A stretch of 64,000 nucleotides of DNA, taken from contig JALSTB010000013.1 of NCBI GenBank assembly GCA_026983955.1, forward strand, positions 17,720 through 81,719. The letters are read 5' to 3'. Within the stretch, counting starts at the first letter, position 1. Every line of letters starts with the position of its first letter. Origin of the DNA: Melioribacteraceae bacterium. Its GTDB lineage: Bacteria; Bacteroidota; Ignavibacteria; Ignavibacteriales; Melioribacteraceae. Shown here one piece after another: positions 12,085 through 25,657 of this stretch. The notes beneath the pieces were generated by a model. It searched no databases and had not been told where the DNA came from. It saw nothing but the letters and a program-made list of their open reading frames with translations. A program made the position numbers and the translations under genes.

Positions 12085-12879
12085 TTGAAGATTCTTTTAC
12101 TAAGCATATTATTATTCGTTGCGGCGCTTTTAGCCAGTTTTTTCGGTCAAGGAGGCGGTGTATTATATACACCAATTCAAATATTATTGGGAGTCCCGTT
12201 TCAAACGGCGGCTGCTACAAGTTTATTTTTAATAATGGTCATAGCATTTTCCTCTACACTTGTATATCGTAAAGCGCATACGGTTGATTGGCAAATGGCT
12301 GCCATTATGGAAATACCTACTACCATAGGTGCTTTTATCGGAGGTTTTATTTCAGGTTATTTCCCGGAAAGAATACTAGTATTTATTTTATCCGGTCTTT
12401 TATTAACCGGAGCTTTTGCATTGAACCGCTATCATTCCCCGGCAAGTATTGAAAAAAAAGAAAGGAATGGTTTTTGGATTTGGACCCGTGAAATGAACGG
12501 TATAAAATACCATATTAACATTTTATTATTGATTCCCGTAACTCTTTTGGTAGGTTTCTTAACAAGCATAGTGGGAATAGGCGGTGGACCAATTAAAGTG
12601 CCAATGATGGTTTTGCTTTTTGGCGTACCAATGGATATTGCAATCGGTTCAAGCGCTTTTATGGTTGGTCTTACTGCTACAGCCGGATTTATCGGACATG
12701 CAGCGATTGGCCATTGGGACTGGAAAATTTCGCTAATTCTTGCAATACCTGTTTTTATCGGTGGGCAATTCGGAAGCCATTTTTCCACTCATCTTAAAAA
12801 AGAAAAATTACAGAAGTGGTTCAGCTGGTTTTTGATTCTTATAGCCGTTCTGATATTTATTCAGAAGGTAAATATTTAA
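12085..12879 (+). CDS. TSUP (TauE/SafE) family sulfite/organosulfonate-type exporter
   Basis: 264 aa with a TTG start. It has two 4-TM repeats, each with a Gly-rich motif (FFGQGGGVLYTP; IVGIGGGPIKVP). Confidence 0.8.
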   Translation: MKILLLSILLFVAALLASFFGQGGGVLYTPIQILLGVPFQTAAATSLFLIMVIAFSSTLVYRKAHTVDWQMAAIMEIPTTIGAFIGGFISGYFPERILVFILSGLLLTGAFALNRYHSPASIEKKERNGFWIWTREMNGIKYHINILLLIPVTLLVGFLTSIVGIGGGPIKVPMMVLLFGVPMDIAIGSSAFMVGLTATAGFIGHAAIGHWDWKISLILAIPVFIGGQFGSHFSTHLKKEKLQKWFSWFLILIAVLIFIQKVNI

Positions 12880-13095: not shown

Positions 13096-15318
13096 TTAAA
13101 TTTTCGCTCTTTTCAATCTTAAAGAATTGCTGATTACCGAAACCGAACTCATGGACATTGCACCTGCGCCAATCATCGGGTTTAGAAAACCTAGTGCCGC
13201 AAACGGAATACCAATCGAATTGTAAACAAACGCCCAAAACAAATTTTGTTTGATTGTTTTAATGGTTGCATGCGATAATTTTATAGCGGAAACCACCGCA
13301 GTCAGTTCACCTTTTATTAATGTAATATCCGATGATTCTATGGCAACATCGGTACCGGTACCAATGGCAATACCAAGATCGGCAGCAGCGAGAGCGGGAG
13401 AATCGTTAATGCCGTCGCCAACCATTGCAACAATTTCACCTTTACTTTGTAAATCTTTTATTATTTTTGATTTCCCGCCCGGTAATACTCCGGCATAATA
13501 ATTATCGAGTCCAACTTTTTCAGCTATGCTTTTGGCGGTTATTTCGTTGTCGCCGGTAACCATATAAACTTTAATACCCATTTGTTTTAATTTTTTAATG
13601 GCTCCGGCAGATGAGGATTTTACAGGATCGGCTATTCCGATAATACCGGCGAGCTTTCCATTGACCGCTACAAAAACAACGGATTTCCCTTCGGAGCTTA
13701 TTGCATTGTAAATCTCTTTTTTATCAATTGTTCGGATATTGTTATTTTCCAGGAAACTTCTGTTACCAATAAATAACTCGTAACCGTTCACTGTAGCGCC
13801 GATTCCGTGACCTTCAAAATTTTTAAAGTGGGAAATTTTTCCGGGTTCAATTTTTCTATCTTTACAATATCTTGTAATCGCTTCCGCAAGAGGATGTTCG
13901 GATCTGTTTTCTGCGGTAAATAATAAACTTAAAAAAGTATTACGGTCGATTCCGAATGTATGAATATCGGTAACCACAGGATTTCCTTCTGTTATAGTAC
14001 CGGTTTTGTCAAACACAACAGCGGTTATCTTGTGAGCTTTTTCGAGGCTTTCGCCGTTCTTAATTAAAATTCCGTTTTGTGCACCCAATCCGGTTCCAAC
14101 CATAATTGCCGTTGGGGTTGCAAGCCCCATTGCACAAGGACAAGCGATAATCATAACAGCGACAAAATTAATCAATGCCGTGTTGAACGATGATGTTTCC
14201 GGAATAATCAACCATCCGAAAAAAGTAAGCGCCGCAATACCGATCACCACGGGGATAAAAACCGCCGCTACTTTATCCGCTATTTTTTGAATTGGTGCCT
14301 TGCTTGCCTGGGCTTCTTCAACCAAGCGGATAATTTGTCCTAAAACGGAATTATCACCCAGTTCCGAAACTTCATATACAAAGGTACCGCTTTTGTTAAG
14401 TGTACCGCCGATAACCGCCGAACCTTTACTTTTTTCTACAGGTAAACTTTCACCTGTTAACATTGATTCGTCAACCGAAGAGTAGCCGTCTAAAATTTTT
14501 CCATCTGACGGAATTTTTTCTCCGGGTTTAACAATTACTTTATCCCCGGTTTTTAAATCATTTAAGTCAATCTTTTGTTCAACTCCACCAACTATCACTG
14601 TTGCTTGTTTCGGTTTCAGTTCCAGCAATTTTTTTATTGCAGAATTTGTTTTGCTTTTGGCTCTACTTTCCAGAACTTTGCCGAGAAGAATTAGTGAAAT
14701 GATTACAGTTGCCGTATCGAAATAAACATGAGAAACATTTTGTTCATTTAACCAAGAAGGGAAAAGGGTAATAACTGTACTGTAAATAAATGCAGCACCG
14801 GTTCCTATTGCTACAAGCGAATCCATGTTTACGGAAAAGTGTTTTATATTTGTCCAAAACGATGAATAAAATCGTTTACCTGAAATAAATATTACCGGCG
14901 TGGTTAGAATCAATAAAATTTTGTTTGTGTAATCATCTGAAAAAGTCCAAAATTCCCGGAAGAATTCAAAACCTCTTAGCATGCTTATAAGAAAGACGGG
15001 CAAAGTAAAGATTAATGCAAAGCGAAAGCTCTTTTTTAATTCGGAGTAATGCTCGTCTTGAAGGGATATTTCTTCGACGTTATCCGCTGCACTGCTTGTG
15101 CCGTCAAGCACTTGTTCGGTTCGTAATTTATAACCGTATTTTTCAACGGCTTTTGCCGCAACGGATAAATCGATATCCGATTTACTCTCTATTGTTACTT
15201 TCTCGGTTGCCAAATTTACGGAAACATTCTCTATGCCTTCGATTTTTCTAAGGGATTTTTCCACTCTTGCGGCACAGCTTGCACAAGTCATTCCTTCAAC
15301 CGGTAAATTGTATTTCAT
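13096..15318 (-). CDS. copA: Copper-translocating P1B-1-type ATPase
   Basis: 740 aa with an N-terminal HMA domain, [15 protein letters not shown]. It has the TM6 CPC motif ([13 protein letters not shown]), [18 protein letters not shown], the TM7 YN motif (FVYNSIGIP) and the TM8 MSxSS-like motif (AMSMSSVSV). Confidence 0.95.
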
Positions 15319-15758: not shown

Positions 15759-16637
15759 ATGACTCGACTTCAACACAAAATATATATATCGTTCTTCGTT
15801 CTTGTAACAATTGGTGTGACTGCATGGTTGATTTATTATGGTTATCCGTATTATTCACTTCCTGTTGAAGAACGATTTTTCTCACCTCTTCACAATCAAC
15901 TTAAACCCGGTGGATTTACCGGGCATGGAATCGGCATTATCGGTTCACTTTTGATGTTAATCGGCGTTGCCGTGTATATGATTAGAAAACGTGTAAAATA
16001 TTTTCACCGTTTCGGAATACTTAAACACTGGCTTGAATTTCATATTTTCTTATGCACGTTAGGTCCGATACTCATAGTTTTTCATACATCGTTCAAATTC
16101 GGCGGACTCGTTGCCGTTAGTTTTTGGAGTATGGTTGCAGTGTTTTTAAGCGGTATAGTCGGGCGGTTTATTTATGTAAGAATTCCCCGGACAATCGAAG
16201 GTGTGGAACTGGATTTGAGACAAGTCCAACAAATAAATGATGAGCTATCGGTGAAATTACGAAATTACTACAATGTCAAAGATGATATTTTACTTGAGAT
16301 TGAGAATATAACAAACAGAAGGCACAAGGGAACGCTCTCGGCAGCTAACATTTTTTTTATAATTGTTAAAGATTTTTTCATTAGAAGGAAAAACATCCGG
16401 ACGATAACAGGCAAACTTAAAAGTTCCGGGGTTTCCAAGAAAAAAATTGCAGAAATAAAATTGTTAGTAAAACAAAAAATGCTTTTAAACAACAGAATTG
16501 AATATCTAAGAGTACTTCAAAATATATTCAAGTTTTGGCATATCGTACATTTGCCGTTCGCCTTAATTATGTTGGTGATAATGATTATTCACATCGGTGT
16601 GGCAATTGCTTTTGGATACGTCTGGATATTCAATTAA
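15759..16637 (+). CDS. Polytopic membrane protein with two bis-His helices, putative di-heme b-type transmembrane cytochrome
   Basis: 292 aa with about 5 TM segments. The TM3 pair is H-IFLCTLGPILIVF-H and the last-TM pair is H-LPFALIMLVIMII-H, each with exactly 13 intervening residues. A Lys/Arg-rich helical loop of about 120 aa separates TM4 and TM5. Confidence 0.65.
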   Translation: MTRLQHKIYISFFVLVTIGVTAWLIYYGYPYYSLPVEERFFSPLHNQLKPGGFTGHGIGIIGSLLMLIGVAVYMIRKRVKYFHRFGILKHWLEFHIFLCTLGPILIVFHTSFKFGGLVAVSFWSMVAVFLSGIVGRFIYVRIPRTIEGVELDLRQVQQINDELSVKLRNYYNVKDDILLEIENITNRRHKGTLSAANIFFIIVKDFFIRRKNIRTITGKLKSSGVSKKKIAEIKLLVKQKMLLNNRIEYLRVLQNIFKFWHIVHLPFALIMLVIMIIHIGVAIAFGYVWIFN

Positions 16638-16813
16638 TTAACAAATTTTCAAGGGCGCTAAACATTAGGTAAAAAATACCGATTAATATACGATTATAGG
16701 ACATATTGTATCATTTTAGATTTATAAATCGGATAACAAATCGTTTTTTGCAATGAAAAAGCGGGTATTTCTGTGGCACTTTTATTGTTTTACCAAAATA
16801 GATAGTTTATAAA

Positions 16814-18142
16814 ATGGAAGTTTTATTAGAAAATATAATTATTTATGCACTTCTTGCCGTAATAATAGCCGGTGTATTTTACATATACCTCAAAACCCAT
16901 AAATACGAATCGGAAAAGAATATCCAAAAAATAAAGCGTGCCAAAGAATACGGTTTTCATGAACCGGTTTCACTGCATCCTGTAATAAATGAAGATATTT
17001 GTATCGGAAGCGGGGCTTGTGTTGTTGCGTGTCCGGAAAACGATATACTCGGCTTGGTTGACGGCAAAGGCAAATTAATTAATGCTTCCCATTGTGTTGG
17101 GCACGGTGCTTGCTTTCATGCTTGTCCGGTAGAAGCAATTACTTTGGTTATGGGCACCGAAAAAAGAGGAGTGGAATTGCCCCATGTAAGTTCCGAATAC
17201 GAAACAAACGTTAGAGGAATTTACATAGCCGGTGAATTAGGTGGTATGGGATTGATAAAAAATGCAATAGAGCAAGGGAAAAAAGCAGTCGACAATATTC
17301 ATAAATCGATTGAAAATAATAATGAAGCAAAATACGATGTGATAATTATTGGCGCAGGTCCTGCAGGAATTGCAGCTACACTTAGAGCAGCTGAATATAA
17401 TTTGAAATTTTTAACAATTGAACAGGACAGTATTGGCGGGACCGTATTTTCATTCCCGCGTGCTAAAGTTGTAATGACTTCACCGGTAGAAATACCGCTT
17501 TACGGGAAGGTGAAATTACATGAAACTTCAAAATCGGAGTTAATCGATTTATGGTCTGAAATTCTTGAAAAAAATAAAATTTCAATTAATGAAAATGAAA
17601 AAGTAAATGAAATAGTCAAATACGAGAAGTATTTTAAGGTAATTACAAACCAAGACGAATACACGGCTCAAAAAGTTTTATTGGCAATCGGGCGCAGAGG
17701 TTCACCCAGAAAATTAGGTGTGCCGGGTGAAAATTCGGAAAAGGTTTATTACAAATTGTTGGAACCGGAACTGATTCACAATAAAAAAATCCTGGTAGTT
17801 GGCGGTGGTGATTCCGCAATTGAATCGGCGCTGCTTTTAGCTGAGGAAGGTAATGAAGTTACTGTTTCTTACCGTTCGGATTCATTCAAAAGGTTAAAGC
17901 CCAAAAATTTCAAAAAGATTGAAGATGCAATAAAACTCAAACTGGTAAATGTTTTATACAATTCAACTGTGAAGGAAATTAAGCCTGATAAAGTTGTGTT
18001 AAATTTTAAAAACGGGTCGGTTGCCGAATTGGAAAACGATTTGGTTTATGTTTTCATTGGTGGTGAATTACCGAATAAATTTCTGGAAAAAATTGGAATA
18101 AAAATTACAAAGAAGTTCGGTGAAGCAATATTAAAACATTAA
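16814..18142 (+). CDS. Membrane-anchored 2x[4Fe-4S] ferredoxin domain fused to a TrxR-like FAD/NAD(P)H oxidoreductase (no redox CxxC)
   Basis: 442 aa with an N-terminal TM helix followed by a basic stretch. It has two cluster motifs, CIGSGACVVACP and CVGHGACFHACP. It has two dinucleotide folds, DVIIIGAGPAGIAA and ILVVGGGDSAIESA. It has no CATC-type disulfide. Confidence 0.85.
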   Translation: MEVLLENIIIYALLAVIIAGVFYIYLKTHKYESEKNIQKIKRAKEYGFHEPVSLHPVINEDICIGSGACVVACPENDILGLVDGKGKLINASHCVGHGACFHACPVEAITLVMGTEKRGVELPHVSSEYETNVRGIYIAGELGGMGLIKNAIEQGKKAVDNIHKSIENNNEAKYDVIIIGAGPAGIAATLRAAEYNLKFLTIEQDSIGGTVFSFPRAKVVMTSPVEIPLYGKVKLHETSKSELIDLWSEILEKNKISINENEKVNEIVKYEKYFKVITNQDEYTAQKVLLAIGRRGSPRKLGVPGENSEKVYYKLLEPELIHNKKILVVGGGDSAIESALLLAEEGNEVTVSYRSDSFKRLKPKNFKKIEDAIKLKLVNVLYNSTVKEIKPDKVVLNFKNGSVAELENDLVYVFIGGELPNKFLEKIGIKITKKFGEAILKH

Positions 18143-18156
18143 TCAAAATATTTGCT

Positions 18157-19722
18157 TTGGTCTTTACATTTGCCGTATGGGGAAATTTGTTTGCCCAAAT
18201 TTCTCCCGGTGATCTTGTTGCGGCTCATTCCGGGTTGGAAGGAATCAGCAATTGTACCAAATGCCATACACTGGGTAAAAGCTTGGATAATGCCAAATGC
18301 TTGAAATGCCATACTGAAATTGCCGGATTGATTAATACAAATCGCGGATTCCATGCAAATAAAAAGGTAGCCAAACAAAATTGTTGGAAATGCCACGGCG
18401 ATCATTTCGGAAGGAAATTTCAAATTATCCGTTTCAACAAAAAAACTTTTAATCATGTTGATGCAGGATATAAATTAAAAGGGGAACATGCAAAGGCCGG
18501 GTGTAATGACTGTCATAAACCTGAATTTATTAATGACAAAAAATTAAAGAATAGAAAAAAAACATATTTGGGGCTCAACACAGAATGCAAAACTTGCCAC
18601 GAAGACGTTCACCAATCGACGCTTGGGAATAATTGTGCCGGTTGCCACACCGAGGAGAAATTTAAACCGGCGGTAAAGTTCAATCATGATAACACAAATT
18701 ATAAATTAACCGGAGCTCACAAAAAAGTTGAGTGCAGAGGTTGCCACACCATTGCCACAAAAAACGGAAAGAAGTTTCAAAAATTTAACGATGTGGAATA
18801 TCAATCTTGCAAATCTTGTCACGAAGATTTCCATAAAGGCAAATTCGGAAACAAGTGCAGCTCTTGCCACACTACCGCCTCGTTCAGAAGGGTAAAAAAC
18901 ATGAGGTCATTTAATCACAGTAAAACAAATTTTCCTTTGGTTGGTAAACACAAACTGGTTGATTGTAAAACATGCCATAAAGGAAATTTGAGCTTCAAAC
19001 CTAAATACAAATTGTGTACGGACTGCCATTCCGATTACCATGAAGGTGAGTTTCAGGATGATGAAGATAACAGCGATTGTTCCGCATGTCATACCGAGAA
19101 AGGTTTCAGTCCCTCCACCTTTACCATTGAAAAACACAACAACACAACATTTAGATTAACGGATGCACACGAAGCATTGCCTTGTTATACTTGTCACCGT
19201 ACCGGCGATAAATGGCATTTTAAGATTGACGGTAAGTATTGTGTAAATTGCCATGAGAATATCCATCAATCTTCAATAAGTGAAAAATATTTTTCGGAGA
19301 AAAAATGTGAAAACTGCCATAATACGGTTACTTGGCAAAATATAACATTTAATCATGAACAAACACAATTTAAATTAACCGGCAAGCATCAAGAACAGAG
19401 ATGTTCCGCTTGTCATTTTAAAAGGGATGAAAAAAGTAATATTGTCCAGCATTTCAAAGATTTACAACCATATTGCAGTCAATGTCATAACGATGTTCAT
19501 GCCGGACAATTCGGAAGTGGCGAAGATGAAACTTGTAACCGCTGCCACACAACGGAGAATTGGGAACCGTCGTTATTCGACCATAACGAAACAAGATTTT
19601 CACTTGAGGGGGCACACGCCAATTTGGAATGTTCGCAATGTCATTTACCGGAAAAAAAGAAGGGCGTAGTGTTTATTCGTTACAAAATTGAGGATACGAG
19701 ATGTATAAGCTGTCATTCATAA
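18157..19722 (+). CDS. Multiheme c-type cytochrome, 20 CxxCH motifs
   Basis: I counted 20 CxxCH motifs in 521 aa. There is a repeating unit F-x-H-x3-F-x-L-x-G-x-H-x4-C-x2-CH ... C-x2-CH-x-D-x-H. The signal-peptide-like end is FAVWGNLFAQ. The true start may lie upstream at a non-canonical codon (see findings). Confidence 0.9.
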   Translation: MVFTFAVWGNLFAQISPGDLVAAHSGLEGISNCTKCHTLGKSLDNAKCLKCHTEIAGLINTNRGFHANKKVAKQNCWKCHGDHFGRKFQIIRFNKKTFNHVDAGYKLKGEHAKAGCNDCHKPEFINDKKLKNRKKTYLGLNTECKTCHEDVHQSTLGNNCAGCHTEEKFKPAVKFNHDNTNYKLTGAHKKVECRGCHTIATKNGKKFQKFNDVEYQSCKSCHEDFHKGKFGNKCSSCHTTASFRRVKNMRSFNHSKTNFPLVGKHKLVDCKTCHKGNLSFKPKYKLCTDCHSDYHEGEFQDDEDNSDCSACHTEKGFSPSTFTIEKHNNTTFRLTDAHEALPCYTCHRTGDKWHFKIDGKYCVNCHENIHQSSISEKYFSEKKCENCHNTVTWQNITFNHEQTQFKLTGKHQEQRCSACHFKRDEKSNIVQHFKDLQPYCSQCHNDVHAGQFGSGEDETCNRCHTTENWEPSLFDHNETRFSLEGAHANLECSQCHLPEKKKGVVFIRYKIEDTRCISCHS

Positions 19723-22079
19723 TTTTGTTCTTAATGTCCGGTATTCTTTATGCACAATCGCCGCACGGTGAAAATTTTAATTACGATTGTGCCGAATGCC
19801 ATTCGACCGATACTTGGAAAATAGATATCAAGAAATTGAAATTCGATCATTCAAAAACCGGTTTCGAACTTGCCGGTCAGCATGCTGTGCTTGATTGCCA
19901 ATCGTGTCATGAATCTCTCGATTTTGTAACAACCAAGAACAGATGTTTCGATTGTCATAACGATATTCACCAAAACACACTTGAAAAGGATTGTCAAAAA
20001 TGCCATAATTCAAACAATTGGTTGGTGGAGAATATTAATGACATTCATAATGCCGGACGTTTTCCTTTGCTTGGAGCACATTCGACCGCGGATTGCCAAC
20101 AATGCCACAAATCGATTGAAAATTTGGTGTTTGAGCAACTTGGAGTCGAATGTATAGATTGCCACTCCGGTGATTATATGAACGCTCAAAATCCCGATCA
20201 TGTGGCTGTCGGTTTTTCGAAGGACTGTGAACAATGTCATTCCGTTACGGATTTACAATGGAGTTCGGCTCAATTTGCACATGATTTTTTCCCGCTGACT
20301 TTAGGGCATGATATCGGTAATTGTTTTGCTTGCCATAGCACACAAGGTTTCGAAGGGTTGTCAACAGATTGTTATTCTTGTCATAAAGAAAATTTTAACA
20401 ATGCGGTTGATCCAAATCATGTAAACTCTAATTTTTCACATGATTGCGTACAGTGCCATACAACCAATCCGGGTTGGAAACCTGCCGATTTCAAAAATCA
20501 CGACCAAGTATTTGCTTTACTAGGCGCACACGATAAAATTCGAAATGATTGTGCAAAATGTCATTCTTCCGGATATTCCGGAACACCAACTGATTGTTAC
20601 AGTTGCCATGAAACCCAGTACAATCAAACAAGTAATCCCGATCATTCCGCAACTGGTTTCGGTACGGATTGCGAATCTTGCCATAATGTAAATGCGTGGA
20701 GTCCTGCAACGTTCGATCATGACAACCAATATTTCCCGATATACTCGGGTAAACATAATAACGAATGGAATAATTGTTCGGATTGCCATACGAATCAAAA
20801 CGATTACAGTGTTTTCTCGTGTATAACATGCCATGAACATTCGCAAAGCAAAATGGATGACGAACACAAAGAAGTTTCCGGTTATGTTTATGAAAGTCAA
20901 GCATGTTTTTCATGCCATCCGCAAGGCGACAAGGAAGGGGCAATAGATCATTCAAAAACGGCATTTCCGTTAACCGGCGCACATCAAAATGCAGAATGTT
21001 CACAATGTCATGCAAACGGTTATGCGAACACACCGTTGGAATGTTACTCATGCCACGATGACAAATACACAAGTGCGGCAAATCCGAAACATACTGATGC
21101 CGGTATATCGACGAAGTGTGAAGATTGTCATACAACTACAGCGTGGAAACCGTCAACTTTTAATCACGGCAGTACTGGATTTGAGTTGGCGGGCGGACAT
21201 CAATTGCCGCAATGTTCGAGTTGTCATCAAGGGAGCACATCCGGAACTTCTCCGCTATGTTACAGTTGTCATCAAGCCCAGTACAACAATGCAGAAAATC
21301 ATGTAGCACAAAATTATCCAACTACGTGCGAACAATGTCACAATACGACGAAATGGGATGATGCGGATTTTGATCATAACAACACGAATTTCCCGTTGAC
21401 CGGAGCACATGTAAATACGGATTGTTCGTCATGTCACACGAACGGTTATTCGGGAACTCCGTCCGATTGTAATTCGTGTCATAATGCAAATTACCAGAAC
21501 ACAACGAATCCAAGTCACACAAATTTGGGATTATCGAGACAGTGCGAGACTTGTCACACAACAGAACCTGGTTGGAAGCCAGCGGAATTTCCTGTGCACA
21601 ACGATTATTATGTGCTGAACGGAGCACATGCGTCAATTTCCGGTGACTGTGCGACGTGCCATAACGGAGATTACAACAACACACCGAACACATGTTACGG
21701 TTGTCATCAAGCGGATTATGAAGGTACGAACGATCCACCGCATCAAAGTACGGGATTCGGAACCGATTGCGAAACATGTCATACCGAAACTGCGTGGAAA
21801 CCTTCGACGTTCGATCATGACAACCAATATTTCCCGATATACTCGGGTAAACATAATAACGAATGGAATAATTGTTCGGATTGCCATACGAATCAAAACG
21901 ATTACAGTGTTTTCTCGTGTATAACATGCCATGAACATTCGCAAAGCAAAATGGATGACGAACACAAAGAAGTTTCCGGTTATGTTTATGAAAGTACCGC
22001 TTGTTATGACTGTCATCCGAATGGCAAAGAAGAAGGCGGAATTCCTTCTCCCGCTCATATTAAAAGAATGAGGTACTGA
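19701..22079 (+). CDS. Giant multiheme c-type cytochrome, 31 CxxCH motifs, modular
   Basis: I counted 31 CxxCH motifs in 792 aa. The signal peptide is MYKLSFIILFLMSGILYAQ, with no lipobox Cys. A GAGGA RBS is present. The start overlaps the upstream cytochrome gene by 22 nt. The stop overlaps the next gene's ATG. Confidence 0.95.
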   Translation: MYKLSFIILFLMSGILYAQSPHGENFNYDCAECHSTDTWKIDIKKLKFDHSKTGFELAGQHAVLDCQSCHESLDFVTTKNRCFDCHNDIHQNTLEKDCQKCHNSNNWLVENINDIHNAGRFPLLGAHSTADCQQCHKSIENLVFEQLGVECIDCHSGDYMNAQNPDHVAVGFSKDCEQCHSVTDLQWSSAQFAHDFFPLTLGHDIGNCFACHSTQGFEGLSTDCYSCHKENFNNAVDPNHVNSNFSHDCVQCHTTNPGWKPADFKNHDQVFALLGAHDKIRNDCAKCHSSGYSGTPTDCYSCHETQYNQTSNPDHSATGFGTDCESCHNVNAWSPATFDHDNQYFPIYSGKHNNEWNNCSDCHTNQNDYSVFSCITCHEHSQSKMDDEHKEVSGYVYESQACFSCHPQGDKEGAIDHSKTAFPLTGAHQNAECSQCHANGYANTPLECYSCHDDKYTSAANPKHTDAGISTKCEDCHTTTAWKPSTFNHGSTGFELAGGHQLPQCSSCHQGSTSGTSPLCYSCHQAQYNNAENHVAQNYPTTCEQCHNTTKWDDADFDHNNTNFPLTGAHVNTDCSSCHTNGYSGTPSDCNSCHNANYQNTTNPSHTNLGLSRQCETCHTTEPGWKPAEFPVHNDYYVLNGAHASISGDCATCHNGDYNNTPNTCYGCHQADYEGTNDPPHQSTGFGTDCETCHTETAWKPSTFDHDNQYFPIYSGKHNNEWNNCSDCHTNQNDYSVFSCITCHEHSQSKMDDEHKEVSGYVYESTACYDCHPNGKEEGGIPSPAHIKRMRY
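20709..20897 (+). repeat. Copy 1 of a 189-bp perfect intragenic direct repeat
   Basis: Base-by-base comparison with 21807..21995 shows identity over 189 bp. The offset is 1098 bp (366 codons, in frame). It encodes TFDHDNQYFPIYSGKHNNEWNNCSDCHTNQNDYSVFSCITCHEHSQSKMDDEHKEVSGYVYES. Confidence 0.9.
21807..21995 (+). repeat. Copy 2 of the 189-bp perfect intragenic direct repeat
   Basis: Identical to 20709..20897. The flanking homologous sequence is diverged, for example CESCHNVNAWSPA versus CETCHTETAWKPS upstream and QACFSCHPQG versus TACYDCHPNG downstream. Confidence 0.9.
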
Positions 22080-23686
22080 TGAAAAAAATACTGGCTTGTT
22101 TTTTTCTGATTACAATAACCATATCCGGTCAAAATGCGGGTAAAGTAAAACTCGTTGGAAAAGTCGATTACATTTCGGCACAATATTATTACATTAACTT
22201 TACGAACACGGAAAGAATTAACATTGGCGATACTTTGTTCATCAAGTACCGGAAAAAATATTATCCCAAACTTATTGTTGAAAAAAAATCTTCGAGAACA
22301 TGCGCAACAAAATTGTTAGGCAAAAAAATAAAAAAGGGCAGGAGAGTTTATGCTTTTGTTGACAAATTAAACGTAACCCGGGAAAAAACACAGCAAACGA
22401 AAAAATTAAAAGTATTAACGGCTGAAAACGGCTCACCGAAGATGAACACCGGTAAGGCGAAAAAATTTGTTAAAGTTAATCCGGAGTATTACGGTAAATA
22501 CAGTCTTTCAGGTTATTCCAATTTTTCGAATGTTATTGCACAAAGCGATTATCATCATTGGAGACATTCTTTATCTTTTTATGCAAACAACATTAAAGGC
22601 AGCAAACTTTCTTTTTCTTCATACATAATGTTCAGGTATAGAAGCGATAAATGGAGTTACGTTCACCGTCATTTGGGAAGTGCATTGAAAATTTACGATT
22701 TCTCAGTCCGGTACGACATCAATAAAACAACAAAATTAAGCTTCGGTAGGAAAATAAACAGAAAATTATCGAATATCGGAGCGATTGACGGACTGCAAAT
22801 GGAAACGGAATACAAGGGATTTTTTATCGGGGGTATTTTGGGTTCGAGACCGAATATTCAAGACTACGGTTATAATTTTAAATTGCTTGAAATGGGAGTT
22901 TACATAAGCAGCGAAGATTCCTTGGGCTACGGTAAAATGACAAATACTTTATCGGTTGTGCAACAAATGAATGATAACACGACCGACCGGAGATTCTTTT
23001 ATTTTCAACATTCCAGTCACATTTTAAAATCGCTTCATCTTTTCTTTTCTTCGGAAATAGATTTTTTCAAACATTATCATAATACAACTTCACACGATCC
23101 GTATTTGACAAACATTTTTGTTTCCCTCCGATATTCACCGACACGTTGGATATCTTTCAATACTTCCTACGATGCAAGAAAAAATGTAATTTATTACGAA
23201 ACATACAAAAGTCATCTTGACCGATTGTTGCAAAATGCAATGCGGCAAGGGTTCAGGTTGCGGGTAAACTTAAAGCCGGTTAAATTTATTTTCGCATCGG
23301 TTTATGCGGGATACAGATTCAGAAAAGATGACAAGGTTCCCACGAAAAATCTTGGGCTTTCTCTAACCCATTCAAGGATTCCTTTCTTACATTTATCGGC
23401 AAATTTAAGTTATATCAATTTGAAGACGAATTATCTTAACGGTGAAATTTTCGGATTGCGTTTGTCAAAAGATTTGTTCGACGGTTTATTGTATGCAACG
23501 CTTGGGTTCCGGAATTTGAATTACGAATTCACTTCATTCCAACAAAGTTTAAACCGGAACACGGCTTTACTGGATTTATCCTTCCGCTTGACAAGGAAAT
23601 TATCTTTTTCAATTAGTTACGAAGGAACGTTTGAAGAGAAATCTTCTTACTCGAATTTATTTTTCAATATTACACAAAGATTTTAA
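22079..23686 (+). CDS. Outer-membrane beta-barrel protein translationally coupled to the cytochrome genes (putative porin of a porin-cytochrome complex)
   Basis: 535 aa with signal peptide MKKILACFFLITITISGQNAG. An N-terminal soluble domain of about 110 aa and a Lys-rich linker come first. Then follow about 400 aa of alternating-polarity strands rich in Y/F/R/S. The C-terminal residue is Phe (FFNITQRF). The start codon overlaps the upstream stop (TGATG). Confidence 0.8.
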   Translation: MKKILACFFLITITISGQNAGKVKLVGKVDYISAQYYYINFTNTERINIGDTLFIKYRKKYYPKLIVEKKSSRTCATKLLGKKIKKGRRVYAFVDKLNVTREKTQQTKKLKVLTAENGSPKMNTGKAKKFVKVNPEYYGKYSLSGYSNFSNVIAQSDYHHWRHSLSFYANNIKGSKLSFSSYIMFRYRSDKWSYVHRHLGSALKIYDFSVRYDINKTTKLSFGRKINRKLSNIGAIDGLQMETEYKGFFIGGILGSRPNIQDYGYNFKLLEMGVYISSEDSLGYGKMTNTLSVVQQMNDNTTDRRFFYFQHSSHILKSLHLFFSSEIDFFKHYHNTTSHDPYLTNIFVSLRYSPTRWISFNTSYDARKNVIYYETYKSHLDRLLQNAMRQGFRLRVNLKPVKFIFASVYAGYRFRKDDKVPTKNLGLSLTHSRIPFLHLSANLSYINLKTNYLNGEIFGLRLSKDLFDGLLYATLGFRNLNYEFTSFQQSLNRNTALLDLSFRLTRKLSFSISYEGTFEEKSSYSNLFFNITQRF

Positions 23687-24270
23687 TTGACCGAATCGAT
23701 AAACTTGCGGGGCAGTTTCATATTGTTTTTGAATTCGCTTGCAGTTAAACCGGTCACTTGCTTGAACTGCCTCGATAAATGCTGTACGGAGCTGTAACCG
23801 AGCCGGTATGCGATTTCACTTAAAGTAAGTTCGCCGTATTTCAGAAGCTCCTTTGCTTTTTCTATTTTTTGGAGTATTATGAAATGTTCGATTGTAATAC
23901 CTTCCGTTTTGGAAAACAATGAGCTTAAATAATTATAATCTTTATGAAACGTTTTGCTGAGGTGCTTGGAAAAATTAAGTTTTTCCAAATCTTCGTCCTT
24001 GTATTTTTGAATTAAACTGATTATCTCGGTCTTTATGGAATCAATAAGTTTTGCTTTTGTATCTTCTATCAACTCGAAACCTTCTTTGGAAAGGACGTCT
24101 TTAATAGCTTCAACATCCAAACCGCTTTTACTTTGTGCCAATTTTACTTGTCCGAGTTCGATATGCAAAACCTCATATCCTAATTTTTGCAATTCTTCCC
24201 GTACCACCTTTATACAGCGGGGACAAACCATATTTTTTATATGTAAAACCGTTTCTTCCATAATCATCAC
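23683..24270 (-). CDS. AraC-family transcription regulator with N-terminal heavy-metal-associated (HMA) domain
   Basis: 195 aa with an HMA-like N-terminus, LHIKNMVCPRCIKVVREEL. The C-terminal AraC-type HTH is LSEIAYRLGYSSVQHLSRQFKQVTGLTASEF. The start is ambiguous among three N-terminal Met codons. Confidence 0.85.
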   Translation of the reverse strand: MMIMEETVLHIKNMVCPRCIKVVREELQKLGYEVLHIELGQVKLAQSKSGLDVEAIKDVLSKEGFELIEDTKAKLIDSIKTEIISLIQKYKDEDLEKLNFSKHLSKTFHKDYNYLSSLFSKTEGITIEHFIILQKIEKAKELLKYGELTLSEIAYRLGYSSVQHLSRQFKQVTGLTASEFKNNMKLPRKFIDSVN

Positions 24271-24341
24271 CGTTTTTTACATAAAATATAAAAAATATTG
24301 TTATTTTGAAATCAAACAGAAAACAGGTTATGGAGACATCT

Positions 24342-24983
24342 ATGAAAATTAGTTTGAAATTCTTAATAGTTTTAATATCGGGAATAATATTTAATTGTTC
24401 CGGAAGCACAAAATTGCTTAACCCAAGTGATGAAGATTTAGGAATGAAGGCACCGGAAAAGTTCACTGTCGTATTCGTAACAACAAAAGGTGATATTAAA
24501 ATTGATGTAAAGCGAGAATATTCACCACTTGGAGTTGACAGATTTTATTTTTTGGCGAAAAATCATTATTACGATGGCAACAGGTTTTTCAGAGTTGTGC
24601 CGGATTTTGTAGTACAATGGGGTATTAACGGTAATCCGGAAATTAACAAGGTTTGGGAGAATGCGGGTATCGAAGACGAACCGGTAAAACTTAGTAACAA
24701 GAAAGGTACGATGGCTTTTGCCAGAGGCGGACCGGATACCCGGTCAAATCAATTGTTTATAAATTTAAAAGATAACTTGCGCCTCGATACCACGAATTTT
24801 ATGGGTGTAAAAGGGTTTCCTGCTTTCGGAAAAGTTGTCGATGGAATGAATGTGGTCGAATCGATCTACTCCGGTTACAGGGAATTACCAAACCAGGATT
24901 CAATTCAAATAAAAGGAAACGAATATTTGATGCGGAACTTTCCCGAATTGGATTACATTATTACTACGAAAATTATTGAATAA
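24342..24983 (+). CDS. Cyclophilin-type peptidyl-prolyl cis-trans isomerase, secreted
   Basis: I chose the start at the ATG preceded by GGAGA, because the ORF track begins at a TTG at 24306. Cyclophilin motifs are present: FFRVVPDFVVQWG, GTMAFARGGPDTRSNQLFINL. Confidence 0.85.
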   Translation: MKISLKFLIVLISGIIFNCSGSTKLLNPSDEDLGMKAPEKFTVVFVTTKGDIKIDVKREYSPLGVDRFYFLAKNHYYDGNRFFRVVPDFVVQWGINGNPEINKVWENAGIEDEPVKLSNKKGTMAFARGGPDTRSNQLFINLKDNLRLDTTNFMGVKGFPAFGKVVDGMNVVESIYSGYRELPNQDSIQIKGNEYLMRNFPELDYIITTKIIE

Positions 24984-25013: not shown

Positions 25014-25625
25014 ATGAAATATAAATTAATTTTTGTTTATCTTGCCGTATTTGCATTTATTTTGTTGGCGATAGTTTTTTTCGATAGCAGGAATAATAAT
25101 AGCGAACGTACAAAGAAAATACCCGCGGACATCCAACAAAAAGAAATGCCGCAAGATGCAATACATAAAGGACTTGGAAATCCGGCAGCCGGACAACCGT
25201 CGCGCGAGAATGTTTTGGCCTCTGTAAAAGAAAAAATGAAAAAACTGGAAGAGGCAATAGCCAATAATCCGGACGATACCGTAAAAATCCGTGAATATGC
25301 CAATTTCCTGCTAGCTGCTCACAAACCTGAAAAAGCTTTGAAGTATTATAATATGATTCTCGATAAAAATCCCGAAAGGACTGATATTCTGCTTTCGGTA
25401 ACTTCAATTTATTTCAACAAAGGTGATTACAAGAAAGCCGAAGAAACCACAAGGCAAATACTCCGTTATGATAAAAACAATCTCGAAGCACAATATAATT
25501 TGGGCGTAATTTTTGCAGTAACCGGTAAAAAGAGTGAAGCTGAAATCATATGGAAAGATTTGATTGAAAAACATCCGGGTACGGAAGTGGCCAACTTGGC
25601 TAAAAGTGCATTACAAAAATTATAA
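25014..25625 (+). CDS. Membrane-anchored TPR-repeat protein
   Basis: 203 aa with an N-terminal TM helix. It has TPR-like repeats (ALKYYNMILDKNPERTD, YFNKGDYKKAEE, AQYNLGVIFAVTGKKSEA). Confidence 0.75.
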   Translation: MKYKLIFVYLAVFAFILLAIVFFDSRNNNSERTKKIPADIQQKEMPQDAIHKGLGNPAAGQPSRENVLASVKEKMKKLEEAIANNPDDTVKIREYANFLLAAHKPEKALKYYNMILDKNPERTDILLSVTSIYFNKGDYKKAEETTRQILRYDKNNLEAQYNLGVIFAVTGKKSEAEIIWKDLIEKHPGTEVANLAKSALQKL

Positions 25626-25630
25626 AAGAT

Positions 25631-25652
25631 AAGGGCGCAGTAAAGCGCCCTT
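25631..25652. terminator. Bidirectional rho-independent-type hairpin between convergent genes
   Basis: AAGGGCGC-agtaaa-GCGCCCTT, a perfect 8-bp GC-rich stem. It lies between the TPR gene stop (25625) and the POT transporter stop (25658). Confidence 0.7.
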
Positions 25653-25657
25653 AATGT

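Follow-up and report, generated by a model that had tools for sequence, protein, structure and literature searches.

A conserved five-gene unit for a putative quinone-independent electron conduit across the bacterial cell envelope

Five consecutive genes (g1 to g5, Table 1) in the 64-kb window, which is the whole stretch of DNA analysed, form a real and conserved unit. On balance, we favour the reading that this unit is a putative quinone-independent, outward trans-envelope electron conduit, drawing its electrons from pyridine nucleotides or ferredoxin in the cytoplasm and not from quinol. Gene content, motifs, synteny, the arithmetic of the haem modules and the exchange of one partner protein were read directly from the sequences. 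The best reading of the unit among known systems is a new form of porin-cytochrome system.

Table 1. Genes of the unit in the window and their products
Gene	Coordinates	Strand	Product
g1	15759..16637	+	292-aa inner-membrane protein, putative di-haem b transmembrane electron carrier
g2	16814..18142	+	442-aa membrane-anchored flavoprotein, putative cytoplasmic dehydrogenase for NAD(P)H (or ferredoxin) that supplies g1
g3	18157..19722	+	20-haem c-type cytochrome, putative periplasm-spanning wire
g4	19701..22079	+	31-haem c-type cytochrome, putative distal variable-length wire
g5	22079..23686	+	535-aa outer-membrane protein, C-terminal RF
Sixth gene	25014..25625	+	203-aa N-terminally anchored TPR protein, accessory component

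The five genes follow each other on the same strand, and their open reading frames begin and end precisely where the first-pass annotation had placed them. The tight coupling that it described was also confirmed: 14 nt separate the g2 stop from the TTG start of g3, g3 and g4 overlap by 22 nt, and the g4 stop and g5 start share TGATG. Across loci, the g3/g4 overlap measures 22 nt in 33 cases, 25 nt in 11 and 19 nt in one. The true start of g3 may be an in-frame ATT at 18130, upstream of the TTG. No convincing internal terminator was found within the cluster, and a sigma-70 promoter scan was uninformative (37 sites, 37.3 expected). Within the window, g3 and g4 are the only open reading frames with two or more CxxCH motifs.

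We found a long g4-like cytochrome gene directly upstream of the barrel gene (g5) in 76 of 76 barrel homologues. A barrel gene with no adjacent cytochrome, which had been named beforehand as an observation that would speak against the conduit, occurred in 0 of 76. The order g1 to g5 is colinear in 44 of the 49 loci with enough flanking sequence, which come from Ignavibacteria and Bacteroidia (Prolixibacter, Saccharicrinis). Since the arrangement recurs in dozens of species, it is not due to chance. In a third arrangement, g2 lies after the barrel gene (L150, L154, L157). Barrel homologues numbered 1473 at E<=0.001 among 8000 candidates scored, and a genome scan confirmed at least 532 barrel-encoding stretches.

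Judged by sequence comparison, the sixth gene, encoding a TM helix and TPR repeats, is part of the unit. Its product matched only TPR families in a profile search, and shares 37-47% identity (E 1e-40 to 1e-66) with the product of the gene lying between g1 and g2 in L010, L014, L017, L018, L036 and L081. An orthologue of this TPR gene is located between g1 and g2 in many Ignavibacteria, and it takes this position in L152, L155, L156, L159, L162 and L164 as well. In the window, the gene sits outside the span of the first-pass annotation (15759-23686).

In the g2 protein, a TM helix at the N-terminus precedes a Fer4 dicluster domain and a TrxR/YpdA-like FAD/NAD(P)H domain (Pyr_redox_3). Pfam matches to Pyr_redox_3 (1e-47, 163.4 bits) and Pyr_redox_2 (117 bits) exceeded their cut-offs and were accompanied by Fer4 families, and g2 has the two-dinucleotide-binding-domain flavoprotein fold. 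It scored below the NCBIfam equivalog cut-offs for YpdA (179.6 vs 339.9 bits) and TrxR (114.9 vs 343 bits). The Fe-S motifs, C-x2-S/T-x2-C-x3-CP and C-x2-H-x2-C-x3-CP, are kept in 51 orthologues. The gene had been described as encoding a membrane-anchored 2x[4Fe-4S]-FAD/NAD(P)H oxidoreductase. Its membrane anchor, ferredoxin-like dicluster domain and FAD/NAD(P)H domain stand, but 2x[4Fe-4S] is not established because the motifs are non-canonical, with three Cys each.

Acidobacteriota use a different partner at this position. There, 39 of 43 g1 homologues are preceded by a FAD_binding_6/NAD_binding_1/Fer2 flavoprotein unrelated to g2, and a g3-like cytochrome follows 42 of 42 g1 homologues. The replacement is an FNR-like [2Fe-2S] flavoprotein encoded by a separate gene. 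As far as sequence can tell, this swap strongly supports an electron entry driven by NAD(P)H.

The g1 protein had been annotated as a 5-TM protein with two bis-His helices, and our analysis agrees. Two HX13H helices carry H95/H109 and H264/H278, each pair spaced 14, and these are the sole invariant His of g1 across relatives of about 30% identity. The AF2 model, of moderate confidence (pLDDT 71), has five long TM helices and a cytoplasmic helical insert of about 110 aa. His95 and His264 are predicted on the cytoplasmic side and His109 and His278 on the periplasmic side, with the pairs at matching membrane depths, and the topology derived from sequence obeys the positive-inside rule. No Pfam family, including Ferric_reduct (PF01794) and DUF4405 (PF14358), matched the g1 of the window above threshold, and these two gave no match at all. 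Among 20 relatives, 14 matched DUF4405 weakly (best E 1.6e-5; the one printed bit score, for relative P0341, is 19.2 against a cut-off of 26.7), and nine matched PF01794 below threshold (best 2.6e-4, 20.6 vs 28 bits). Neither Foldseek nor sequence-profile searches of the PDB returned a match. The g1 family has 3488 representatives at 50% clustering, and two homologues are named 'predicted ferric reductase' by JGI. DUF4405 proteins were shown to bind haem b, and a role as transmembrane electron carriers was proposed for them (PMC11334425).

Four conserved His on two helices, placed for two b-haems, are likewise found in MsrQ, DUF4405 and PepSY-like (FoxB) proteins and in NOX/ferric reductases. 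The NOX/FRD pattern, in which each of two helices carries a pair of His separated by 13-14 residues, is present in g1, where haem binding itself is putative. Because all Pfam matches are sub-threshold, it is the four His that point to haem, and g1 would be a putative holder of two b-haems across the inner membrane. The earlier proposal of a split NOX-like inner-membrane module is borne out by these four invariant His, by the sub-threshold Ferric_reduct and DUF4405 matches and by the FNR-like swap for g2 in Acidobacteriota. The unit also shares the logic of Fre-MsrQ-MsrP, in which a cytoplasmic NAD(P)H flavoprotein is the donor and a periplasmic redox protein the acceptor. There are also differences. 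NOX/MsrQ-type membrane cytochromes have six TM helices, whereas g1 has five plus the large insert. NOX/FRD proteins have an FNR-type dehydrogenase fused to the membrane domain, whereas here the dehydrogenase is a separate, TrxR-like Fe-S protein (g2), and in Acidobacteriota it is FNR-like but separate as well. Unlike in MsrQ/NOX-type systems, the acceptor here would be a giant multihaem wire.

The two cytochromes contain 20 (g3) and 31 (g4) CxxCH motifs, 51 together, which matches the count given before, and no CxxxCH or CxxCK variants. With 42 His in g3 and 66 in g4, bis-His ligation is possible for every haem. Cytochrome_C7 (PF14522, cut-off 24.8 bits) matched both proteins (g3, 88.6 bits; g4, 98.6 bits), and repeated triheme c7 modules are present in both. 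No sequence relatives of either were found in the PDB. In NCBIfam, g3 weakly matches ExtN, a cytochrome encoded in the operon for selenite/tellurite reduction.

The g3 protein has a Sec signal and a basic, Lys-rich mature part of about 505 aa. Its orthologues in about 55 loci carry 20 CxxCH motifs without exception, at a constant mature length of 500-508 aa and a pI of 8.3. In the g4 protein, a single haem at the N-terminus comes before 10 triheme modules, each about 72 aa long. All intact g4 orthologues follow a 1+3n rule, with 13 to 91 CxxCH motifs, and the g4 of the window contains a 1098-nt internal duplication (20652-20944 vs 21750-22042). In Acidobacteriota, g3 and g4 are a single fused protein, indicating that they form one wire. 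After haem 20, the fusion has a 'DxHLGQLGxxCxxCH' segment, the counterpart of the g4 N-terminus 'SPHGxxFxxxCxxCH'. For the FCB loci (Ignavibacteria/Bacteroidia), we rejected a g3-g4 fusion through frameshifting, given that a signal peptide of its own is conserved in g4. Chained triheme c7-type modules, with haems rising in threes, also make up the Geobacter poly-c7 'nanowire' cytochromes (GSU1996 family). The chains here are far longer, up to 91 haems, and differ in consisting of two proteins, one constant and one variable, whose genes are coupled to those of a barrel and an inner-membrane entry module. The Geobacter nanowire triheme model TIGR04257 (cut-off 40 bits) gave 23.2 bits for g3 and no match for g4.

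The claim that g5 is an outer-membrane beta-barrel ending in Phe, with an extra N-terminal domain, agrees with the AF2 model (pLDDT 80.8). A signal peptide is followed by a small beta domain (22-95), predicted to be periplasmic, a disordered linker (98-132) and a 22-strand barrel (137-534). Since 22 strands are predicted, the barrel would not be narrow, which had been raised as a possible objection. Acidobacterial loci also carry a barrel ending in RF. No family in Pfam or NCBIfam matched g5. The MtrB profile PF11854 had no match even at E<=10 among 27 barrel family members, and MtrB was absent from the top 50 Foldseek matches of g5 in the PDB. Those matches were generic large barrels alone, with the FimD usher on top (TM 0.3-0.45).

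Several known systems resemble the unit in part. In MtrCAB of Shewanella and in MtoAB/PioAB, an outer-membrane beta-barrel gene is likewise tightly linked to genes for multihaem c-type cytochromes, and the logic of MtrCAB, an insulated haem wire across the outer membrane, is held in common. The MtrC/MtrF pentahaem domain of Pfam matched g4 above threshold (66.8 vs 30 bits). However, the parts differ. MtrB is a 26-strand barrel around a decahaem cytochrome, whereas g5 has 22 predicted strands, an N-terminal domain and no MtrB_PioB match. The MtrCAB cytochromes have 10 + 10 haems, in contrast to 20 and 1+3n here, and scores for MtrA/DmsE TIGR03508 (cut-off 192.2 bits) were far below threshold (g3, 43.6; g4, 26.3). 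MtrC/OmcA is a surface decahaem lipoprotein, whereas neither cytochrome here has a lipobox Cys. Electrons enter Mtr through a CymA-type quinol dehydrogenase, whose place would be taken here by g1 and g2.

The Geobacter Pcc (OmbB-OmaB-OmcB) and the Pcc of Ignavibacterium album, which belongs to the same phylum as the cluster here, share the combination of a porin-like protein with periplasmic and outer cytochromes. By their published description, the Geobacter cytochromes are set apart by having 8 and 12 haems, against 20 and 1+3n and no lipobox here. The I. album cluster (IALB_1837-1840) includes a 400-aa periplasmic cytochrome with 14 haems and an outer cytochrome with atypical haem motifs (PMC4245776), whereas the unit here has CxxCH motifs only and includes g1 and g2. 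We rejected identity with the I. album cluster on haem number and protein size, and the two look like different loci. The EET1-4 clusters from peat (bioRxiv 2026.05.27.727921) are not this unit either, their cytochromes having 8-13 haems. The multi-omics paper on M. roseus makes no reference to the cluster. The view that this five-gene combination is not a described system was upheld: g5 matches neither MtrB nor any Pfam or NCBIfam family, relatives of g3 and g4 are absent from the PDB, and a paper describing the combination was not found in the literature searched.

Under the outward conduit that we favour, g2 would act on the cytoplasmic face, where its FAD would oxidise NAD(P)H and pass single electrons on via two Fe-S clusters. 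Two stacked b-haems on the HX13H helices of g1 would then move the electrons over the inner membrane, and the fixed-length, 20-haem g3 would span the periplasm. The single N-terminal haem of g4 would complete the truncated last triheme module of g3, so that both proteins would form one continuous bis-His haem chain. This chain may thread, or dock on, the 22-strand barrel g5, and the variable part of g4, which comprises 4 to 30 modules of three haems in relatives, would offer haems to an external acceptor, for which Fe(III)/Mn(IV) minerals, humics, electrodes and partner cells are candidates. In this scheme, we infer the cofactors of g1 and g2, the protein contacts, the localisation of g4, the direction of flow and the acceptor. 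Among the carriers is Prolixibacter bellariivorans, isolated from a sediment fuel cell (cited in PMC8368055), which speaks for the outward reading; the attribution of Prolixibacter corrosion to nitrite (PMC8368055) and locus L070, where g1-g3 are not near the cytochrome and barrel, speak against it. The likely role would be an electron sink that regenerates NAD(P)+ in fermentative or facultative anaerobes because, on thermodynamic grounds, export from NAD(P)H would dissipate and not build membrane potential.

The location of g4 bears on a different explanation. As noted in the first-pass annotation, g3 and g4 lack a lipobox: no Cys occurs near the predicted signal cleavage sites (AQ|ISPG, AQ|SPHG), and no surface-export signal was recognisable on either protein. 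For this reason, a position of g4 at the cell exterior is putative, and g4 may instead be a long periplasmic cytochrome. The whole system could then be periplasmic, with g3 and g4 as an electron store or broad-specificity reductase and g5 as a porin admitting soluble oxidants or metals, the candidate substrates being Cu(II), chromate, selenite, humic analogues and reactive oxygen species. The ExtN matches of g3 fit this idea, as do the genes for a CopA ATPase and an HMA-domain AraC regulator that flank the cluster in the window and in its two closest relatives (L002, L003). However, these copper genes are missing from all other loci, and a copper-specific role was therefore rejected. A g4 of 13-91 haems also fits poorly in a defined periplasmic space, and its acidic, Lys/Arg-poor composition (Lys+Arg 4%, against 14.5% in g3) suggests a different compartment. 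Moreover, the barrel is translationally coupled to g4 and never occurs without it, which is not expected of an ordinary porin. We consider a periplasmic system unlikely.

Multihaem conduits are reversible in principle, as is established for Mtr/Mto. The same proteins could thus take up electrons from Fe(II), Fe0, a cathode or a syntrophic partner and deliver them via g1/g2 to NAD(P)+ or ferredoxin. All haems are apparently bis-His and so probably of low potential, which would suit this direction, and the carriers include two species of Prolixibacter that have been linked to the corrosion of Fe0 and to anodes of fuel cells. However, most carriers are fermentative heterotrophs, and inward flow would oppose the membrane potential and run uphill to NAD(P)+, which on energetic grounds would restrict it to very low-potential donors. 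Corrosion by Prolixibacter was ascribed to nitrite rather than to direct electron transfer (PMC8368055). This reversed flow appears improbable.

Quite improbable, too, is that g1 and g2 serve maturation or redox maintenance, for instance by supplying reductant over the membrane so that the 102 haem-binding cysteines stay reduced, with respiratory electrons reaching g3 from the quinol pool by way of an unlinked dehydrogenase. In favour of this, the nearest models for the flavin domain of g2 are those of thiol-disulfide reductase-type enzymes (YpdA and TrxR), the TM-TPR protein of the unit has an apocytochrome-chaperone-like domain layout, and locus L070 has a cytochrome and barrel with g1-g3 not nearby. 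Against it, g2 lacks a redox-active CxxC pair, since its six Cys are all part of the Fe-S motifs, g1 has one conserved Cys against four invariant His, and the FNR-like [2Fe-2S] protein that replaces g2, with g1 and the cytochrome still side by side, is devoid of thiol chemistry.

To our knowledge, the characterised Gram-negative EET routes (CymA, ImcH, CbcL, CbcBA) all draw on the quinol pool. In its fullest form, to which we give slightly less than an even chance, the outward conduit would be an unrecognised, phylum-spanning EET machine that bypasses quinones. Here, a split NOX-like module, made of an interchangeable flavoprotein and a new di-haem b protein, would feed a c7-type cable. This cable would have a 20-haem periplasmic part and a 13-91-haem distal part tuned by module duplication, with one triheme module split over two polypeptides, and would run through 22-strand barrels of a new family.

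If true, a NOX-like gate fed directly by NAD(P)H would represent another kind of bioenergetic solution, serving as an electron sink for fermenters and not as respiration, and the scoring of 'iron reduction' in metagenomes would change. The strict 20 and 1+3n haem arithmetic and the split-or-fused junction lend themselves naturally to studies of how haem wires are assembled and extended. The unit is directly testable in cultured carriers, which include Prolixibacter, Saccharicrinis and probably Ignavibacterium. It is abundant and occurs in Ignavibacteria, Bacteroidia and Acidobacteriota. These groups are frequent inhabitants of sediments, aquifers, bioreactors and anode biofilms, and their part in metal and humic reduction has so far been poorly explained.

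The five co-directional ORFs that the first-pass annotation had reported at 15759-23686 were recovered exactly, all on the plus strand. They encode a membrane protein (g1), a flavoprotein (g2), two multihaem cytochromes (g3 and g4) and a barrel (g5). The junctions (a 14-nt gap between g2 and g3, a 22-nt overlap between g3 and g4, and a TGATG overlap between g4 and g5) and the haem-motif counts were also correct. No variant haem motif was found among the 20 + 31 CxxCH sites of g3 and g4, and their His totals (42 and 66) are sufficient for bis-His ligation at every haem. These two are the only ORFs with two or more CxxCH motifs in the 64-kb window. Among the matches listed, the nearest relatives were Melioribacteraceae MAGs, and the source is therefore an Ignavibacterium-class organism.

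Genes of the cluster and its flanks in the window
Feature	Coordinates	Strand	Remarks
TauE/SafE-family sulfite/anion exporter	12085-12879	+	upstream of copA
CopA-type Cu P-type ATPase	13096-15318	-	brackets cluster
g1	15759-16637	+	292 aa ORF
g2	16814-18142	+	442 aa ORF
g3	18157-19722	+	521 aa ORF, 20 CxxCH
g4	19701-22079	+	792 aa ORF, 31 CxxCH
g5	22079-23686	+	535 aa ORF, barrel
AraC-family regulator	23683-24270	-	N-terminal HMA (CopZ-like) domain; brackets cluster
Cyclophilin-type peptidyl-prolyl isomerase	24306-24983	+	lipoprotein-like signal (..FNCSG); between AraC and TPR genes
TM-anchored TPR protein	25014-25625	+	window orthologue of the gene between g1 and g2, 37-47% identity

No ATG or GTG lies upstream of the listed TTG start of g3 at 18157 (window 18124-18160), and with this start the signal peptide would be 14 aa long and lack a basic n-region. 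Starting instead at the in-frame ATT at 18130 ('IKTLIKIFALVF..'), g3 would have a normal signal peptide and a 13-nt overlap with the g2 stop. The same 'ATT AAA' was also found in L002 and L003, the two closest relatives.

We scanned one genome per species for the barrel and confirmed at least 532 encoding stretches, of which the best 80 were used for synteny counts. No barrel was found without an adjoining cytochrome: a g4-like gene was directly upstream in 76/76 loci (those of the best 80 with at least 300 nt upstream of the barrel). Among those of the best 80 with at least 9 kb of upstream sequence, 44/49 had g1, g2, g3, g4 and the barrel colinear on one strand. Two of the five exceptions were L070, without g1-g3 upstream, and L058, with g1 and g2 inverted. 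The three others look technical in cause: L060 and L077 have a long g4 and no g1 match inside the flank, and in L057 the g4 match extends into the barrel start, so that it fails the test of the counting script. In L070 (6655-11524, a Bacteroidota MAG), a 43-haem g4-like gene and a barrel follow unrelated genes; the entry module may be encoded elsewhere, or the locus may be a second, partial copy. Carriers belong to Ignavibacteria and Bacteroidia, and include the cultured Prolixibacter denitrificans, P. bellariivorans and a Saccharicrinis species.

In many Ignavibacteria, g1 and g2 are separated by an additional gene of about 200 aa. Judged by sequence, its window orthologue, the TPR protein, is a predicted sixth component of the unit, beyond the span first proposed. 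A strong bidirectional terminator-like hairpin (25630-25653; 9 bp, 6 GC) is located directly 3' of the TPR gene; no other convincing terminator was found between 15200 and 25800.

The cluster seems to lie between the gene for a copper pump and the AraC gene, which probably encodes the regulator of that pump and overlaps with the barrel stop by 4 nt at its 3' end. Outside the window, this bracket was found in L002 and L003 only, among the matches listed. The cyclophilin gene, which could possibly help fold the cytochromes, was likewise kept in L001, L002 and L003 only. The TauE/SafE exporter appears unrelated to the cluster.

Both cytochromes passed the Pfam Cytochrome_C7 threshold. Across about 55 loci, g3 carries 20 CxxCH (19 in one), and its mature length is constant at 500-508 aa. 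Its haem pattern is 3 + 5x3 + 2 with the C-terminus within two residues of haem 20, so the last module is without its third haem. The CxxCH count of g4 ranges from 13 to 91 in these loci, and is 1 mod 3 in every intact copy (13, 16, 22, 25, 28, 31, 34, 40, 43, 46, 49, 52, 55, 58, 61, 70, 79 and 91). The window g4 consists of one N-terminal haem and ten triheme modules of about 72 aa each. In every locus, the N-terminus of mature g4 reads 'SPHGxxFxxxCxxCH', matching the third-haem segment of g3-type modules. The g3/g4 overlap measures 22 nt (33 loci), 25 nt (11) or 19 nt (1), and its conservation points to translational coupling. g3 is basic (Lys/Arg 14.5%, pI 8.3) and g4 is acidic (Lys/Arg 4%, pI 5.9) and rich in N/S/T/Q, which is consistent with, but does not prove, different compartments.

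We also identified a direct repeat of 293 nt in g4 (20652-20944 and 21750-22042; spacing 1098 nt, 89% nucleotide identity), which we take to be the trace of a recent 1098-nt duplication that copied five modules (15 haems). Repeats of this kind are the probable source of the variation in length from 13 to 91 haems, and they may mislead short-read assembly. In several MAG loci (L065, L044, L068), the g4 region is split into numerous short ORFs with CxxCH motifs; the most likely cause is frameshift errors in the repetitive sequence, not true pseudogenes.

Pfam and NCBIfam searches assigned no family to g5. Its AF2 model (pLDDT 80.8) contains a small beta domain at residues 22-95, which accounts for the extra N-terminal domain noted earlier, a disordered linker and a barrel ending in RF. 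The concern that the barrel might be too narrow is countered by the 22 strands predicted. Foldseek returned generic large barrels only, with the protein-translocating FimD usher first at low TM-scores, and MtrB was not among the top 50 matches. Of the 8000 candidates scored, 1473 were homologues at E<=0.001, and every one of these was unnamed or 'hypothetical'.

No Pfam or NCBIfam family was assigned to g1 either. The AF2 model (pLDDT 71) is all-helical, with five helices that are long and hydrophobic, plus a charged insert of about 110 aa on the cytoplasmic side; Foldseek against the PDB found no similar solved structure, and the family profile matched no PDB sequence. Seven His are invariant among close homologues, and at about 30% identity these are reduced to four, forming two HX13H pairs on TM3 (H95/H109) and TM5 (H264/H278). 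Positive-inside topology puts H95 and H264 close to the cytoplasmic side of the membrane, and H109 and H278 close to its periplasmic side, the geometry expected of two putative b-haems stacked across the membrane. Sub-threshold but recurrent Pfam matches among g1 relatives were DUF4405 (14/20) and Ferric_reduct (9/20), and JGI annotates two homologues as 'predicted ferric reductase'. For DUF4405 proteins, haem b binding was demonstrated and a role as transmembrane electron carrier proposed (PMC11334425). The g1 family comprises 3488 representatives at 50% clustering. In one member (P0300, 418 aa), the first 224 residues of a g1 homologue are joined to a Pyr_redox domain; this may be a true g1-g2 fusion, or else an artefact of assembly or gene calling.

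The flavoprotein g2 consists of a TM helix at the N-terminus, a dicluster domain of ferredoxin type and a flavin domain resembling TrxR/YpdA, and was the equivalog of no named enzyme in Pfam/NCBIfam profile searches. It contains six Cys in total, in the motifs C-x2-S/T-x2-C-x3-CP and C-x2-H-x2-C-x3-CP, whose His is invariant in 51 orthologues. Of the 2x[4Fe-4S] assignment made earlier, the two clusters stand; the [4Fe-4S] type was dropped because both motifs lack the second Cys, leaving three each. One of the two clusters is probably His-ligated.

A distant g1 member is preceded by an N-terminally anchored FAD_binding_6/NAD_binding_1/Fer2 protein and followed by a multihaem cytochrome with an N-terminus ('LLSPGPLSAAHAKLEG..C..CH') homologous to the g3 N-terminus. 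With this clade as seed, a metagenome scan yielded 63 high-GC loci, assigned to Acidobacteriota because the named close homologues of the seed belong there (mostly Thermoanaerobaculales). An FNR-like flavoprotein was immediately upstream of g1 in 39/43 loci with upstream sequence, and a g3-like cytochrome immediately downstream in 42/42 loci with downstream sequence. In these loci g3 and g4 are fused into one protein of 39-65 haems, with 'xDxHLGQLGxxCxxCH', the counterpart of the g4 N-terminus in Ignavibacteria and Bacteroidia, after haem 20, and with the same special terminal module as the window g4. Given this fusion, the g3/g4 boundary of the Ignavibacteria and Bacteroidia loci cuts a triheme module of an otherwise continuous chain. 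The fused cytochrome is followed by a signal-peptide-bearing protein of about 445-510 aa that ends '..RF'; one matches the barrel profile (E 6e-4). In a third arrangement (L150, L154, L157), g1, g3, g4 and the barrel (E 1e-19 to 1e-43) precede a g2-like gene. In a high-GC sub-clade (L099, L107, L110, L117), a 23-haem cytochrome follows g1, with a ~360-aa protein, a 4-haem protein and a barrel-like protein of ~600-700 aa further on; this may be another variant of the system.

From these arrangements, membrane protein, wire and barrel emerge as the conserved core, and the dehydrogenase as an exchangeable part, drawn from either of two Fe-S flavoprotein families that oxidise NAD(P)H and are unrelated to each other. 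No other observation supports as strongly as this non-orthologous replacement a role of g2 as electron donor to g1, with NAD(P)H (or ferredoxin) as the source. The replacement also speaks against a thiol-reductase or maturation role.

In functional terms, the cluster would be a porin-cytochrome conduit. It does not qualify as an Mtr system: g5 shows no match to the MtrB profile and has 22 predicted strands versus 26 in the Mtr barrel. Mtr uses decahaems and a lipoprotein cytochrome, whereas g3 and g4 are neither; the unit contains no lipoprotein, in line with the absence of a lipobox noted at first. The cluster also differs from the Ignavibacterium album Pcc, whose periplasmic cytochrome has 14 haems and 400 aa (PMC4245776). 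Like Geobacter GSU1996, g3 and g4 are c7-type polymers, yet fall outside that curated family. The g1-g2 module would work like Fre-MsrQ or split NOX, with sub-threshold evidence of family membership in sequence and fold. Surveys of Ignavibacteria mention large multihaem cytochromes and 'PCC-like' clusters in general terms only (PMC7399161, PMC6137239). The g1-g5 set was not found in openly accessible full-text literature, in agreement with the view that this combination is not a described system.

In the proposed mechanism, g2 would oxidise NAD(P)H at the cytoplasmic face and pass electrons via its Fe-S clusters to the g1 haem on the cytoplasmic side. They would traverse the membrane via the two g1 b-haems to g3, which may span the periplasm, a role that its invariant length would suit. 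Transfer to g4 would occur at the split triheme module, and g4 would associate with the 22-strand barrel, its variable part forming the external end. We consider a trans-envelope conduit fed by g1 and g2, with putative cofactors and contacts, quite likely; outward, extracellular electron flow is favoured with less assurance, direction and localisation both being putative. Reversed flow, with electrons taken up and passed to NAD(P)+, would be opposed by both potential and voltage.

Taken together, the conduit interpretation of the first-pass annotation was supported and extended. Because export of NAD(P)H electrons would dissipate membrane potential, the system may serve fermentative or facultative anaerobes as an electron sink rather than in energy-conserving respiration. 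Its putative new features are the barrel family, the haem cable, which is modular and split, and the NOX-like electron entry, which would be independent of quinones.
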